Positions 2,008-64,000 of a DNA stretch of 64,000 nt are shown here, piece by piece (position 1 is the stretch's first letter; the number at the start of each line of letters is the position of its first letter). This DNA comes from a virus (Duplodnaviria > Caudoviricetes), in the IMG/VR virus record IMGVR_UViG_3300044645_001661; one strand, written 5' to 3'. The translations under genes were made by a program, and so were the position numbers. The notes beneath the pieces were generated by a model. The model was not told where the DNA came from, did no database searches, and was given only the letters and a program-made list of their open reading frames with translations.

Positions 2008-2546
2008 TGGAGGTTAATATGCGTAAAGAAGGATATCAAATTCCTGAAGTTGAATTTATTTGTCGTGAAAATGGTGAGTTTTTAGTCCGTAGTTCTGTAG
2101 ATTATTTTGCTGGAAAGCGTGTGGTCATTTTTAGCCTGCCTGGTGCTTTCACTCCTACTTGCAGTGCCTATCAGTTACCTGGATTCGAAGAGAAATACGA
2201 CGACTTTATTGGTAGTGGCATCGACGCTATTTACTGCATCTCTGTTAATGATGGGTTTGTGATGAATGCTTGGGCACAAGATCAAAACATCAAGAACGTA
2301 ACTCTTATCCCTGACGGCAATGCATATTTCACACGTTCTATGGGACAATTAGTGATGAAGTCTAACCTTGGTTTTGGTCAGCGTTCTTGGCGTTATGCTG
2401 CTGTGGTTGACAATGGTATTATTGAGAAACTGTTCGAAGAACCTGGCAAAACTGATAATGCATTAGAAGATCCTTACGGTGAAACTACTCCAGAAAAAGT
2501 TTTGGAATATGTAAAATCTACTGTCCGCGAAGTAGCAACAGTTTGA
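2007..2546 (+). CDS. Type II (Prx5-like) peroxiredoxin
   Basis: KRVVIFSLPGAFTPTCS active-site motif, CISVNDGFVMNAW, RSWRYA. Confidence 0.9.
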   Translation: MEVNMRKEGYQIPEVEFICRENGEFLVRSSVDYFAGKRVVIFSLPGAFTPTCSAYQLPGFEEKYDDFIGSGIDAIYCISVNDGFVMNAWAQDQNIKNVTLIPDGNAYFTRSMGQLVMKSNLGFGQRSWRYAAVVDNGIIEKLFEEPGKTDNALEDPYGETTPEKVLEYVKSTVREVATV

Positions 2547-2550
2547 ATAT

Positions 2551-2574
2551 AGGAGGGTTTATCCCTCCTTTTTT
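2551..2574 (+). terminator. Intrinsic terminator, followed by a late-promoter-like AATAAATA
   Basis: AGGAGGG-TTTAT-CCCTCCT then TTTTT. Confidence 0.75.
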
Positions 2575-2605
2575 AATAAATATAATGCAGAGTTTGGTTA
2601 AAATA

Positions 2606-3304
2606 ATGCTTATAGATCTTCATAACTTCTTTAAATTCTTTGATGAAAATAATCCAAAGCATGTTGCTGCAGTAGAGCAATTTGAAAAGGATTTGCTTTT
2701 GAAGGCACAAGAACTAATGCAAGATGAAGCAAATTGGGTGAGAATTTTTAGAACAAAAGAAAACAAACCTCAAGCAGATATTTTACCAGTTCCATTTTAT
2801 CCACAAACAGATAATTATAGAGATGCAGATAGAACTTGTAACTCTTCTGCTTGTGCAATGTGTCTCGAATATTTTAAACCAGGCACATTAAAAGGATCTA
2901 AGGGCGATGACGCCTATGTACAAAAAGTTTTTTCAATCGGTGACACAACTGATCACTTGGTTCAAACCAAAGTTCTTGCGTCATACGGCATTAAATCCAG
3001 TTTTTCCTACAGTCTTTCTTTTGCTGATCTTGATAGAGAGCTTGCCGCTGGTAGACCTGTTGTTATTGGCATTCTTCATCGTGGGACTCTATCTAATCCC
3101 ACAGGAGGACACATGGTAGTTGTGATTGGCAAAACTCCTGCTGGAGATTATGTAGTTAATGATCCTTATGGTTCATTGAATGATGGATATACTGAGGCAG
3201 TACAAAATGGTAAAGGTGCTGTTTATAAACGTAGTGAATTAACACGTAGATGGTGTCCAGCAGGAAATGATGGGTGGGGTAGAATTTTTGATGTAAAAAA
3301 GTAG
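2606..3304 (+). CDS. C39-like (papain-fold) peptidase, probable endolysin component; likely start 2606 rather than 2543
   Basis: QTDNY..RTCNSSAC (Cys), GGHMVVV (His), DPYG (Asp); the 2543 start would run through a terminator. Confidence 0.8.
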   Translation: MLIDLHNFFKFFDENNPKHVAAVEQFEKDLLLKAQELMQDEANWVRIFRTKENKPQADILPVPFYPQTDNYRDADRTCNSSACAMCLEYFKPGTLKGSKGDDAYVQKVFSIGDTTDHLVQTKVLASYGIKSSFSYSLSFADLDRELAAGRPVVIGILHRGTLSNPTGGHMVVVIGKTPAGDYVVNDPYGSLNDGYTEAVQNGKGAVYKRSELTRRWCPAGNDGWGRIFDVKK

Positions 3305-3344
3305 AGTCAACACCACAACAAAAAATCCCCCAATGTGGTGTTGA
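3295..3344 (+). promoter_or_regulatory. Putative programmed -1 ribosomal frameshift signal (slippery heptamer plus hairpin)
   Basis: A_AAA_AAG at 3295-3301 in register with the peptidase frame; 5-nt spacer; perfect 11-bp stem TCAACACCACA (3307-3317) / TGTGGTGTTGA (3334-3344). Confidence 0.8.
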
Positions 3345-3783
3345 TTTAATTAAAGAATTTGAGGGATGCCATTTAAATGCTTATCCCGACCCATTAACTG
3401 GAGGTCTACCAATAACTATTGGATGGGGAAGTACTAGAGATTTTAATGGGCAACCATTTAAACTTGGAAAAAAAGTCACTCAAGATTATGCTGATAAATT
3501 ACTTTTATTTGATCTTGAACAAAGATTTCTTCCTTCTTTACAAAAGATTCCTTATTGGAGTGAAATGACTGATAATCAACATGGAGCACTTTTCAGCTTT
3601 GCTTATAATCTCGGTGCTGGTTTTTACGGTGGAAGCGGATTTAATACTATCTCTCGCAACCTTCGTGAGAAGAATTGGTCAGCAATCCCAGAGACATTAA
3701 AGATGTATCGTAATCCTGGAAGTAATGTAGAATCGGGATTATTGAGAAGACGTACTGCTGAAGGAAAACTATGGATATCTTAA
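3298..3783 (+). CDS. Phage lysozyme (GH24-like) domain in the -1 frame, with no start codon upstream of its catalytic residues
   Basis: Frame opens after TGA at 3289-3291 and reads ..LIKEFEGCHLNAYPDPLTGGLPITIGWG..ALFSFAYNLG..GLLRRRTAEG; the first ATG/GTG/TTG is at 3565, downstream of the E-x8-D..T catalytic region. Confidence 0.85.
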   Translation, partial: KVESTPQQKIPQCGVDLIKEFEGCHLNAYPDPLTGGLPITIGWGSTRDFNGQPFKLGKKVTQDYADKLLLFDLEQRFLPSLQKIPYWSEMTDNQHGALFSFAYNLGAGFYGGSGFNTISRNLREKNWSAIPETLKMYRNPGSNVESGLLRRRTAEGKLWIS

Positions 3784-59909: not shown

Positions 59910-60773
59910 ATGGCGGGTAAAAGTCTTCCAGCGATAAATCCTGGGGTATCAATGTCTAGAATAAAAAGTAGACTATTGCAGCCTGCTTTAACATCTAATT
60001 ATTCTGTTATAATTGCTCCACCAGGTAAAGCCTCTTTTCCTAGACAATCTGGGGATAAGGGGTTTGCTTTGTCATTCATAGAAAAACAAATAGGAAAACC
60101 AGTAGATAATGAATTATTAGAACTATCTTGTTCTGAGGCATCATTACCAGGATCATCATTTGCAACAATTGATATTAATAATGATTATATGGGGATAACC
60201 CAAAAACATGCATACAGGAGATTATATGATGATAGGGCAGACTTTACATTTTATGTGACTCAAGATAGTAACTATTATCAAATTAGATTTTTTGAGGCAT
60301 GGATGAGATATATTGCAAATGAGCAATATATTCAGGGAGTTTCTGCTAATGATAAACTTTCTTCCGCATCGATATCTAGAATACAATATCCAGAGTTCTA
60401 TAAATCAATTATACAAATTGTTAAATATGAGAGAGATTATGGCACTGGTAGATCATCTCAATCACCATTATTAATCTATAATTTTGTAGATGCATTTCCA
60501 GTGAGTTTAAATTCTATTCCAGTATCTTATGAATCTTCTTCTTTATTAAAAGTTACTGTATCTTTTTCTTATACTAGATATGCTGTTGATGATTTAACAA
60601 CTGTTGCTGAGACAACAGTTCCTGATAGAAATCCAAATTCAACTGGAAATCCAGATGTTCCACCTGGAACTACAACAGTTCAGTTAAATGGATCAAGAGG
60701 AACTGATATTCCAAGAACTGTTGCTATACAGGATGGTAGATCTACATTATCGCAAATATATGATGATGTATAA
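59910..60773 (+). CDS. Tail-tube-fold protein (gp54/gp19-like baseplate-tube initiator)
   Basis: C.EASLPG, Y.R.YD..DFTFYV, FE.WM, AFP.S......Y....LLKVTV.F.Y. Confidence 0.7.
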   Translation: MAGKSLPAINPGVSMSRIKSRLLQPALTSNYSVIIAPPGKASFPRQSGDKGFALSFIEKQIGKPVDNELLELSCSEASLPGSSFATIDINNDYMGITQKHAYRRLYDDRADFTFYVTQDSNYYQIRFFEAWMRYIANEQYIQGVSANDKLSSASISRIQYPEFYKSIIQIVKYERDYGTGRSSQSPLLIYNFVDAFPVSLNSIPVSYESSSLLKVTVSFSYTRYAVDDLTTVAETTVPDRNPNSTGNPDVPPGTTTVQLNGSRGTDIPRTVAIQDGRSTLSQIYDDV

Positions 60774-60820: not shown

Positions 60821-61540
60821 ATGCCTTTACCAAAAATTTCTGCCCCAACATATGAGTTGGAATTGCCTTCTACTAGTCAAGTTATACAATATAGACCATT
60901 TTTAGTAAGAGAAGAAAAACTATTAGTTTTAGCATTGGAGAGTGAAGATACTAAACAAATTACGACAGCAATTAAAACAGTTATTAAAAACTGTATACTT
61001 ACAAAAAATATAAAGGTAGAATCATTACCAACATTTGATATTGAATATTTGTTTTTAAATATTCGTGGAAAGTCGGTTGGTGAAGAACTTGAAGTAAATA
61101 TTATTTGTCCTGATGATGAACAGACTACAGTTCCTGTAACTATTGATATTGATGATATTCAAGTGCAAAAAAATGATAAGCACAAAACACAGATTAAAAT
61201 TGATGATTCCATAATGATGGAAATGAAATATCCTTCATTGGATCAATTTATTAAGAGTAATTTTGACTTTACTGGTAATAGTAATATGGAGCAATCTTTT
61301 GATTTAGTTGCTTCTTGTGTGGATAAAATTTATACGGAAAATGAAGCATGGTCTTCTTCTGATGTAACCAAAAAAGAAATTGTTGAATTTCTAGATCAAA
61401 TGAATTCTTCTCAATTTAAAATGATTGAAGAATTCTTTGATACGATGCCAAAACTTTCTCATGAAATTAAAGTTACCAATCCAAATACTGGTGTTGAAAG
61501 TACTGTCGTACTGGAGGGCCTGTCAAGTTTTTTCGTATAG
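60821..61540 (+). CDS. gp26: Baseplate hub assembly protein annotated as gp26 in cyanophages
   Basis: MPLPKI..PTYELELPS, YRPFLVREEK, DIEYLFLNIRGKSVGE, LEGLSSFF. Confidence 0.9.
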   Translation: MPLPKISAPTYELELPSTSQVIQYRPFLVREEKLLVLALESEDTKQITTAIKTVIKNCILTKNIKVESLPTFDIEYLFLNIRGKSVGEELEVNIICPDDEQTTVPVTIDIDDIQVQKNDKHKTQIKIDDSIMMEMKYPSLDQFIKSNFDFTGNSNMEQSFDLVASCVDKIYTENEAWSSSDVTKKEIVEFLDQMNSSQFKMIEEFFDTMPKLSHEIKVTNPNTGVESTVVLEGLSSFFV

Positions 61541-61563
61541 CTCTAGTCCATATGGACTTGGAG
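61528..61563 (+). promoter_or_regulatory. Putative programmed -1 frameshift signal at the end of gp26
   Basis: T_TTT_TTC at 61528-61534 in register; 6-nt spacer; hairpin CTC-T-AGTCC-ATAT-GGACT-TG-GAG (61541-61563). Confidence 0.7.
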
Positions 61564-61719
61564 AATTATTATAAGTTGAATTTTTCTTTGATTCAATATC
61601 ATAAATATTCATTAACAGAGATTGAAAATTTGATACCGTGGGAACGGGACATTTACGTTACTTTATTGAAGGCTCATTTGGAAGAAGAAAAACTTAAACA
61701 ACAACAAAATGTCGGCTAA
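61552..61719 (+). CDS. gp51: Baseplate hub assembly catalyst gp51-like short ORF (missed by ORF track; probably reached by frameshift)
   Basis: MDLENYYKLNFSLIQYHKYSLTEIENLIPWERDIYVTLL; the -1 frame is open from the slippery site; no RBS. Confidence 0.85.
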   Translation: MDLENYYKLNFSLIQYHKYSLTEIENLIPWERDIYVTLLKAHLEEEKLKQQQNVG

Positions 61720-64000
61720 TAAACCAAAGTTTATAGATAAATTTTGGCCAATATCTACTATTGTAGCGAGTAGAACTGGGCAATATAAAAAAATACTTGC
61801 TCAACGAATGGAAGTGAGCAAGTATTTAATTGAAAATAACTTTGGTGTGAAGGCAGATAAAGTAGCAGATACTTTTATTAACGCATATTTGGCGTCTGAT
61901 AAGGATTATCCAGCACCAATTGAGTCTGTACAAAATCCACAATCCAATAAAGATTTTAGTTTACGTGACCAGTATATTTTATTTTTGTGGAATTACTATG
62001 TAAATGATAAAAGTAAAAAGACAAAAATACCAAAAGAAGTTCCACCTAAAGAACAATCTAAAAGTAATGTTCTAGATCCTTCTGGTGCATTAACTTTATA
62101 TGAAGGTACTAAAGAAGAAGACTTAGTTAATGAGGAAATTGATGAAAGAATATTAAAAATACTTGGGATACAAGATATTTTTGATATTGATTATGGTACT
62201 TATTTAAGTCTTCTAAAAGAAAAATTAGTAACAATAAGTATGGGGGATAAAAAAATCCCCAGAGAAGAACAGATATTATTGCAAGATGAATTTAAAAGAG
62301 TAAAGGGAAAGGTTGGTAGATTTAAAGTAAGAAGTAAAAAAATAAATGCAGATAATATTGGAACAACTGGTCCAATAAGAGTATCTAAACAGCAATATTT
62401 TCTTGCTGGAAAAGTTTCTGTACCTGATGTTTCTAAAGAATCTGCAAATATTGGGAGTTCAATAAAAAAAGATATTGAAGCAATAAAAAATTCTATAATT
62501 TCTATTGCCTCTCTTCTTGCATCTCAAAATAAATTGATTCAAAAAGATGCAGAGAATCAAAGAAAAATTGGTGAAAATTTAAAAAGGGGTAAAAGGGAAG
62601 AAGACTTAGAGAAAAGAGATAACAAGTTAAAAACATTAGCATCAAAAGTCTTAGCACCATTCCAAAGTATTCTTGACAAAATAATTAATTTTATTGTTTG
62701 GACTTTGCTTGGCCGTTTAATGGTCAAATTTATAGATTGGATATCGGATAAAAAAAATAAAAAGAAAATTGATACTTTAGTTAGATTTATTGGTGATTGG
62801 TGGCCTGCATTACTAGGAGCATTTTTATTATTTGCAACTCCTTTAGGTGGATTTGTTAGATCTATCATCGGAACAGTTACCAAATTAACATTTAAACTGA
62901 GTAAATTTGCAATTCCAAAATTACTCAACTTTGTAAAAGCAAATCCTGTTACAGCAGCTCTTATTGGTGGTAGTATTGCTGCTGGAGTTGGTGCTTATGC
63001 ATCTACACAACAAGTTGATAAAACAAGAAAAGAAAATAAAAAATCTGATCCATCTACAGTATTACCTCAAGAAACTGCAAAAACTGGTAAAGGACCAGGT
63101 GCTGCACAATTATCACAAGAGCAAATACAGAGTCGTGGATTTAATATGTTTAGAGGTGGTGGATTGATCCCTAAATTTGGGGATTATCAGAAACCTACTC
63201 CAATTAAAAATATTGGATTTGAAAGTGGTGGTACTATCACAGATGATACTGGTGTTAGAATTGCTGGAGCTGGGAAAGATACTCAGTTGATTGCTGCTCA
63301 ACCTGGAGAGATTGTTATCTCTAAACCAGCAGTTGATAAGTATGGGGCAAACTTCTTCTTAGGATTAAACAAGTCTGGTGGAGGAACTAACGTTCCTAAA
63401 ATGGTGAATAATATTCAATTGGCTGCTGGTGGTGGAATGGTTGGGGCATTAGTTCCAGAAAAACCATCTGCGGCTGCCAAGAAATCTGTTTTTAATCCTG
63501 AGGTTGCTAATAAAAAATCCATGATGAGTCTTAATAATGTTGTGAATGTTGCAAGTTCTTTGGATCAAAATAAAAAATTGACAACTCCAACAAAAATGTT
63601 TGGTGATACCTCAGATACTTTACAAAATGTACCAACTGCGAACAAAAAATCAAGTCAAAAGGCACCTTCTATTAAACCATTTTCACTCAAACCTCCAAGA
63701 ACACAACCAAATAATAAACCTTCTAATTTACAAATATCTAATGACATAAATTCAGTTTCTATAAAAGACGCTGCTTTACAATCATTTAGACCATTATCAC
63801 AAAAAATGCCTTTCATTGTACCATTTATTAATAATGCAATGACAATGATAAGTGGTGTTGGTGATACCCTAGTTGATCTTAGAAAAAGAAATATTAATAT
63901 ACGACCAAATATTAAACAATATATTCCAGAACCACCAAGTGGAAGATCTAAATCTAATGTTATTACATTACCTCCAGTAGTAAAACAATCTACAGAATCT
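61709..64000 (+). CDS. Large tape-measure/baseplate-hub-like protein, partial (runs off the window end)
   Basis: Reads MSANKPKF..; long coiled-coil stretch, hydrophobic segments (WWPALLGAFLLF), GGG.I..GAG.DT motif; absent from the track presumably because it has no stop in the window. Confidence 0.6.
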   Translation, partial: MSANKPKFIDKFWPISTIVASRTGQYKKILAQRMEVSKYLIENNFGVKADKVADTFINAYLASDKDYPAPIESVQNPQSNKDFSLRDQYILFLWNYYVNDKSKKTKIPKEVPPKEQSKSNVLDPSGALTLYEGTKEEDLVNEEIDERILKILGIQDIFDIDYGTYLSLLKEKLVTISMGDKKIPREEQILLQDEFKRVKGKVGRFKVRSKKINADNIGTTGPIRVSKQQYFLAGKVSVPDVSKESANIGSSIKKDIEAIKNSIISIASLLASQNKLIQKDAENQRKIGENLKRGKREEDLEKRDNKLKTLASKVLAPFQSILDKIINFIVWTLLGRLMVKFIDWISDKKNKKKIDTLVRFIGDWWPALLGAFLLFATPLGGFVRSIIGTVTKLTFKLSKFAIPKLLNFVKANPVTAALIGGSIAAGVGAYASTQQVDKTRKENKKSDPSTVLPQETAKTGKGPGAAQLSQEQIQSRGFNMFRGGGLIPKFGDYQKPTPIKNIGFESGGTITDDTGVRIAGAGKDTQLIAAQPGEIVISKPAVDKYGANFFLGLNKSGGGTNVPKMVNNIQLAAGGGMVGALVPEKPSAAAKKSVFNPEVANKKSMMSLNNVVNVASSLDQNKKLTTPTKMFGDTSDTLQNVPTANKKSSQKAPSIKPFSLKPPRTQPNNKPSNLQISNDINSVSIKDAALQSFRPLSQKMPFIVPFINNAMTMISGVGDTLVDLRKRNINIRPNIKQYIPEPPSGRSKSNVITLPPVVKQSTES

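Follow-up and report, generated by a model that had tools for sequence, protein, structure and literature searches.

A single gene in a freshwater T4-like cyanophage, listed by gene callers as gp26 followed by a short gp51, probably encodes two tail assembly chaperone forms through programmed -1 ribosomal frameshifting at the heptamer T_TTT_TTC. The gene lies in a 64,000-nucleotide stretch of DNA (hereafter, the window), which is part of the phage genome and has a GC content of 34%. We propose that most ribosomes would stop at the TAG at 61538 and release a 239-aa short form, the equivalent of T4 gp26 (TAC-N). A fraction would slip back by one base, with two tRNA-Phe on TTT-TTC at 61529-61534, and continue in the -1 frame to give a minor 299-aa form, the equivalent of T4 gp51 (TAC-NC). 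The long form would consist of the whole gp26 domain and a 61-aa three-helix C-terminal domain, and the fusion junction would give tryptic peptides ending in ...GLSSFFR or starting with IALVHMDLENYYK.

The principle of this frameshift is not new, and by the accounts that cite it the work was already published in 2022. According to two citing papers, the PRFect paper and a 2025 paper on phage Adele, Vladimirov, Gautam and Davidson (Virology 2022;566:9-15, doi 10.1016/j.virol.2021.11.003) identified gp26 and gp51 as T4-like tail assembly chaperones (TAC-N and TAC-NC) and described poly-T slippery sequences in T4-like TAC-N genes; the Adele paper cites the work for poly-T -1 frameshift signals there. 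If the published work does not already cover them, the candidate upstream stimulator, the junctions that lack a start codon and the disappearance of the heptamer following duplication, all described below, would add modestly to it.

The gp26 gene and its -1 frame extension

By DNA, the closest records to the window are Synechococcus phage S-SM2 and Prochlorococcus phage P-TIM68, both at about 74% identity. The gp26/gp51 stretch was contained in 20 lake-water metagenome DNA runs, and no RNA run was found among the public runs listed as containing it.

The gp26-like gene occupies 60821-61540 on the + strand and its own ATG is preceded by AGGAG. The 239-aa product matched Pfam PF12322 (T4_baseplate, 1.3e-75) at 254 bits against a curated cut-off of 24.5, over profile positions 2-218 of 219, and phrog_150 ('baseplate hub') at 2.6e-80. 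The 3' end of the gene reads AGT TTT TTC GTA TAG, with the 0-frame stop at 61538-61540. This places T_TTT_TTC (61528-61534, + strand) in the 0-frame register of gp26, two codons before the stop. After a slip, reading from 61534 would proceed as R-I-A-L-V-H-M-D-L-E-N-Y-Y-K-L-N and onward to the first stop, TAA at 61717-61719. The -1 frame extension (61534-61719, + strand) thus holds 61 aa and a stop, and the product sizes are 239 aa in the 0 frame and 238 + 61 = 299 aa in the -1 frame. We assigned the extension as the C-terminal gp51-type domain of the predicted long form from its alignment with T4 gp51 and its match to phrog_634 ('baseplate hub assembly catalyst', gp51; 2.2e-28, profile positions 58-115 of 121). 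The domain corresponds to phrog_634 and Pfam Gp51_C (PF28602). The extension also matched positions 237-280 of phrog_150, the last 44 of a profile with 282 positions.

Gene callers and GenBank instead give a short 'gp51' ORF of 55 aa at 61552-61719 on the + strand. Its ATG lies 11 nt past the gp26 stop, and the 17 nt upstream of 61552 hold no purine-rich Shine-Dalgarno motif. For the reasons given below, this ORF is most likely not a separate gene. A first-pass annotation made from the letters of the window had described the in-register heptamer at the end of gp26, a stop-free -1 frame leading into the gp51-like ORF with products of 239 and about 299 aa, and an ATG without a ribosome-binding site. 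All of its sequence statements were correct, and we computed 239 and 299 aa for the two products.

The window by itself does not settle the matter. Among its ORFs of at least 100 aa we counted 140 in-register X_XXY_YYZ heptamers, and behind six of them the -1 frame stays open over a long stretch. Because slippery heptamers are this frequent at 34% GC, the lone window sequence does not go beyond chance, and the decisive evidence is the comparison of relatives at the sequence level.

The genes on either side were also examined. The upstream neighbour of gp26 (59910-60773, + strand) encodes a tail-tube-like protein, with matches to Pfam Phage_TTP_2 (2.9e-17) and phrog_45 ('tail tube', 1.7e-33); in KVP40 the equivalent neighbour is annotated as gp19-like, and in phiM7 as tail tube monomer. 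Downstream lies a large gene (61709-64000, + strand) that shares its first 11 nt with the end of the extension; it encodes more than 763 aa and is cut off by the end of the window. The first-pass annotation had called this gene tape-measure-like. Its position, size and composition agree with that description, and it has hydrophobic segments of the kind found in tape measure proteins; a comparison with T4 gp29 gave no significant similarity. It matched phrog_35029 (unknown function) at 1e-53 and a tape-measure phrog weakly (E 0.015). In the Cr30 record the tape measure gene is annotated two genes downstream. The downstream gene is annotated as 'endolysin' or 'lysozyme' in P-RSM1 and S-SCSM1.

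A second conserved -1 frameshift candidate was seen elsewhere in the window, at 2543-3783 on the + strand. Here, a Peptidase_C39_2 ORF (2543-3304) has A_AAA_AAG in register (3295-3301) directly before its TAG. Read on in the -1 frame, the sequence encodes a Phage_lysozyme domain (1.6e-22) and offers no start codon for about 80 codons. Of 66 relatives that have the peptidase ORF, 54 retain both the heptamer and the -1 offset, 46 of these lacking an ATG, and three are in-frame fusions.

Conservation of the junction and alternatives to a ribosomal shift

We compared the junction in a close set of 80 IMG/VR relatives, with 75-97% protein identity, and in a distant set found by starting from gp26 of KVP40, Cr30 and phiM7; four GenBank phages were read directly. 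In total, the comparison took in 163 loci, which represent about 115 distinct junctions with protein identities as low as 30%, and spanned Kyanoviridae, KVP40, Cr30, phiM7, S-CAM4 and many uncultured marine and freshwater phages. In the close set, all 80 loci kept TTTTTTC, an extension offset by -1 and a linker free of stops, while the surrounding codons varied synonymously. Across the total, T_TTT_TTY stood in register in all 163 loci, as TTTTTTC in 146 and as TTTTTTT or longer in 17, and the extension lay in the -1 frame relative to the heptamer in every one. The first-pass annotation had called for a survey of these features in relatives, including a linker conserved as coding sequence, and they proved invariant in the 163 loci.

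Conservation extended beyond the heptamer. The codon before it was NNT in 106/106 distinct sequences, through seven types (AGT, TCT, AAT, GAT, GCT, ACT and CAT). The first Phe codon of the heptamer was always TTT, compared with 70% TTT elsewhere in gp26. The linker was conserved as protein, with the pattern x-[IVL]-[AGSC]-[LM]-x-H-x-x-L-x-x-[YF]-[YF], and the extension occurred at one place per genome across 542 phage records. Judged from these sequences, selection acts strongly on the recoding signal and on the frame relation.

Fused forms of gp26 were absent from its 120 best homologues, all of which were 238-239 aa long. We rejected the in-frame fusions that appeared among metagenomic proteins (P0125, P0130, P0131 and P0169), which are fragments with other frame breaks. 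One of them is in a polished long-read metagenome contig from ENA (L172) in which gp26 and the downstream gene are split into several ORFs. Because of the other frame breaks, and of the many split genes in the long-read contig, we treated these apparent fusions as homopolymer errors. In protein databases, errors of this kind in the T run can look like a genuine gp26-gp51 fusion.

We examined the surroundings of the heptamer for elements that could stimulate a shift. A Shine-Dalgarno-like GGAGGG (61513-61518, + strand), read from the sequence, ends 9 nt 5' of the heptamer and is a candidate upstream stimulator. Glu is encoded at this position in 88 of the 106 distinct junctions, by GAG in 56 and by GAA in 32. 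GAG accounts for 25% of Glu codons elsewhere in gp26 and for about 20% at two nearby Glu positions. The enrichment has a binomial P of about 1e-14, a statistic that ignores relatedness and comes from a site that overlaps a conserved Glu-Gly motif. On the 3' side, the 0-frame stop follows the heptamer within 0-3 codons in 111/115 junctions.

The first-pass annotation had also pointed to a hairpin 6 nt after the heptamer that buries the ATG of the short ORF. The fold of the window does contain this hairpin (61541-61563, + strand; nine pairs and one bulge), and ATG 61552 sits at its loop/stem edge, although the whole 101-nt fold has a z of only -1.6. Many close relatives have a hairpin of the GGTCC-ATAT-GGACC type, but the structure is not conserved across the family: RNAalifold on 58 diverse sequences gave no consensus downstream of the heptamer, where pairing was 53% versus 49% in shuffles. 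We therefore regard the predicted hairpin as lineage-specific. The slip would be ribosomal, aided by GGAGGG 9 nt upstream, by the stop two codons on and, in this lineage, by the hairpin 6 nt downstream.

The same long protein could also arise by transcriptional slippage, in which RNA polymerase adds an extra U on the run of six to seven T and a minority of mRNAs carry gp26 and the extension in frame. The signal is indeed a homopolymer run (the 146 and 17 loci above), and the conserved T in the third position of the preceding codon lengthens it. The title of Vladimirov et al. can also be counted in its favor; the summary in the PRFect paper explains this as separate genes. We nevertheless consider slippage by the polymerase unlikely. 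In 92% of distinct junctions a C holds the run at exactly six T, even though a T there would be synonymous (Phe) and slip better. Efficient transcriptional slippage in bacteria usually needs runs of about eight to nine, which counts against RNA polymerase slippage here. In addition, enrichment of a Shine-Dalgarno-like GAGG 9-10 nt upstream fits slippage by ribosomes but not by RNA polymerase.

A still less probable explanation is that gp26 and a free 55-aa gp51 are made separately, by initiation or reinitiation at ATG 61552, with the heptamer merely a conserved Phe-Phe. GenBank and RefSeq annotate many cyanophages in this way. The spacing also fits, since ATG 61552 lies close behind the gp26 stop and in many relatives an ATG lies 2 nt past the stop, a typical coupling distance. 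The start codon itself, however, is missing from part of the family. No ATG was found in the first 12 extension codons of 41/120 distinct junctions, about a third, and no ATG, GTG or TTG in 25/120, yet these start-less junctions keep the conserved residues upstream of the usual ATG position. Cultured phages are among them: S-CAM4, ACG-2014d, P-RSM1 and ACG-2014b have no start for the extension and read ...FF-R-[ILV]-x-L-[FL]-H-[NT]..., and in their records about 180 nt after gp26 carry no annotation before the next gene begins. The start-less relatives contradict the idea that a free gp51 comes only from initiation at 61552.

Several other observations stand against two independent proteins. 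The codon choice, always NNT and then TTT, exceeds what Phe-Phe requires, and Phe-Phe is not kept in the gp26 of phages that have two genes. The -1 offset holds without exception in 163 loci, and T4 gp51 is itself this domain fused to a gp26-type body (see below). Gene callers also place the start of this ORF at many differing points in metagenomes. From the sequences, we conclude that the long form would need the shift, although some free 55-aa product may be made by reinitiation at ATG 61552 in this phage.

Finally, a functionless arrangement produced by chance or assembly error, for which the slippery heptamers of the AT-rich window and the homopolymer errors in some metagenomic fusions could be cited, is refuted as a chance reading by conservation across 163 loci and has a negligible probability, given that these include complete genomes of cultured phages and that 20 DNA runs contain the stretch.

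Relation to T4 gp26 and gp51

The programmed -1 shift predicts a long protein, and we compared this product with the T4 proteins. T4 gp26 (208 aa) is PF12322 end to end, with the C-terminus ...GLKEFFELL. T4 gp51 (249 aa) has PF12322 over residues 1-201 and a 48-aa tail that matches the extension of the window; BLASTP placed the extension on T4 gp51 residues 211-244 at 3e-5. When extension peptides were aligned with T4-like gp51 C-termini (alignment A3), they were gaplessly collinear across the junction and shared the motif F-x12-Y-x-[IL]-N...YSL...IP-x-ER in register. The first-pass annotation had proposed such a match, as F-x12-Y(Q/K)(I/L)N...YSL...(M/L)IP(A/W)ER, and it holds on the real T4 sequence. 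Both T4 proteins resemble those of the window: they belong to the PF12322 family, they come as the same two forms, the short form ends in ...GL-x-x-FF, and the long form carries the same C-terminal domain of 50-60 aa at the same junction. By alignment, the predicted long form is the gp51 orthologue. Because T4 gp51 is collinear with the fusion and T4 gp26 is PF12322 only, the one recoded gene here corresponds to two genes in T4.

The window differs from T4 and its enterobacterial, Aeromonas and Acinetobacter relatives in that these phages have two separate genes and have lost the heptamer. In five phages with a separate gene 51 (T4, RB16, 44RR2.8t, Octan and KFS-EC), no slippery heptamer was present in gp26. 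T4 gp26 reads GAG TTC TTT at the position, and Phe-Phe itself is often lost in two-gene phages. These phages form a natural control, and by this comparison phages retain the heptamer only where they need the shift.

In RB16 (L186, 1201-2494) the long gene 51 precedes the short gene 26 in tandem on the same strand, with an 8-nt overlap, directly after genes 48 and 54. T4 genes 26 and 51 are divergent, unlike this layout. The RB16 arrangement may be an intermediate for the duplication. We tentatively suggest, at somewhat less than even chance, that a single recoded gene with a dnaX-like cassette (Shine-Dalgarno-like GAGG, T_TTT_TTY and an adjacent stop) is ancestral in the whole T4 superfamily and that the two-gene layout of T4 was derived by duplication. 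If so, the recoded gene would have persisted over a very long period in phages that infect cyanobacteria, SAR11, rhizobia, Caulobacter and vibrios, and in about a third of lineages, where no start codon remains, the long form would be wholly dependent on the slip.

We also compared an AlphaFold2 model of gp26 (pLDDT 88) with 48,161 PDB chains. Residues 1-96 of the model matched 3fgx (Z 8.0, 86 aligned), the HK97 tail assembly chaperone 2ob9 (Z 7.4-7.9, 84-85 of 104-107) and YqbN, 3klu (Z 7.4), values in a range of about 7.4-8.0 that can be reached by chance; the next rows had Z 4.8 and 2.7. We take YqbN to be a member of the XkdN-like tail chaperone family. Foldseek of the gp26 model against the PDB and the Swiss-Prot AlphaFold models returned nothing significant (E 0.7 only), and sequence and profile searches of PDB chains gave no match. 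NCBIfam likewise yielded none. A model of a T4-like gp51 (pLDDT 93) reached only Z 3.9, to 3fgx, and its extension part formed a small three-helix unit (pLDDT 80-88) with generic matches only. The models suggest that the gp26 N-domain has a tail assembly chaperone fold, with a match of middling quality. According to a review of the T4 tail, gp26 and gp51 are chaperones of hub assembly whose mechanism is not known, and gp51 is not found in the particle; the record of Acinetobacter phage Octan names both proteins 'tape measure protein assembly chaperone'.

The gp26/gp51 proteins of T4, KVP40, Octan and many marine relatives have two CxxC-type pairs (for example, CPKC and CPEC). In the gp26 model, the beta-hairpins 89-109 and 211-232 match small zinc ribbons, and in the gp26 of the window the CxxC cysteines are lost (ICPDD and NPNTG). 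This suggests that an ancestral zinc ribbon has decayed in this cyanophage lineage.

Known recoded systems and consequences for T4-like phages

The arrangement in the window can be set beside three known systems. In lambda, Xu, Hendrix and Duda reportedly described in 2004 a conserved -1 frameshift of tail assembly chaperone genes, giving gpG and gpGT. As in lambda G/GT, the short and long forms here would share an N-terminal body, and the window N-domain fold resembles the HK97 chaperone. Unlike lambda gpG/gpGT, the body in the window is about twice as long (239 aa) and has extra beta-rich and zinc-ribbon-like parts; sequence similarity is undetectable, and the heptamer is T_TTT_TTC instead of the G_GGA_AAG of lambda. 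Phage P2, a myovirus, makes its tail chaperones E and E+E' by shifting to the -1 frame on a T-run just upstream of the tape measure gene. The shift in the window would likewise use a T-run, in an unrelated sequence and with a run of different length. In the cassette that yields tau and gamma from E. coli dnaX, the heptamer is preceded at about 10 nt by a Shine-Dalgarno-like element and followed by an essential, conserved hairpin. The heptamer and the upstream element recur in the family of the window, both supported by conservation there. The shifted product is shorter in dnaX, whereas it would be longer in the window, and the conserved hairpin of dnaX contrasts with the lineage-specific one here.

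The first-pass annotation had proposed that the gp26 and gp51 genes form one G/GT-like recoded unit. Conservation in 163 loci and the collinearity with T4 gp51 support this proposal, and the fold match of the gp26 N-domain strengthens the analogy with G/GT. By that analogy, and from T4 genetics, both forms would act on the tape-measure/hub protein encoded downstream and would not be part of the virion.

These results point to a widespread annotation error. Hundreds of cyanophage and T4-like genomes list a short 'gp51 baseplate hub assembly catalyst' or a gap, and public annotations lag, since GenBank and RefSeq still show two genes, or gp26 and a gap. The real product in such genomes is very probably the 299-aa frameshift fusion. 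The junctions provide a natural sequence set in which -1 frameshifting at U-rich sites could be studied for cyanobacteria and marine bacteria. Further, programmed frameshifting of a single gp26-gp51 gene would place gp26 and gp51, T4 hub proteins that have long been puzzling, within the universal G/GT scheme of tail chaperones.
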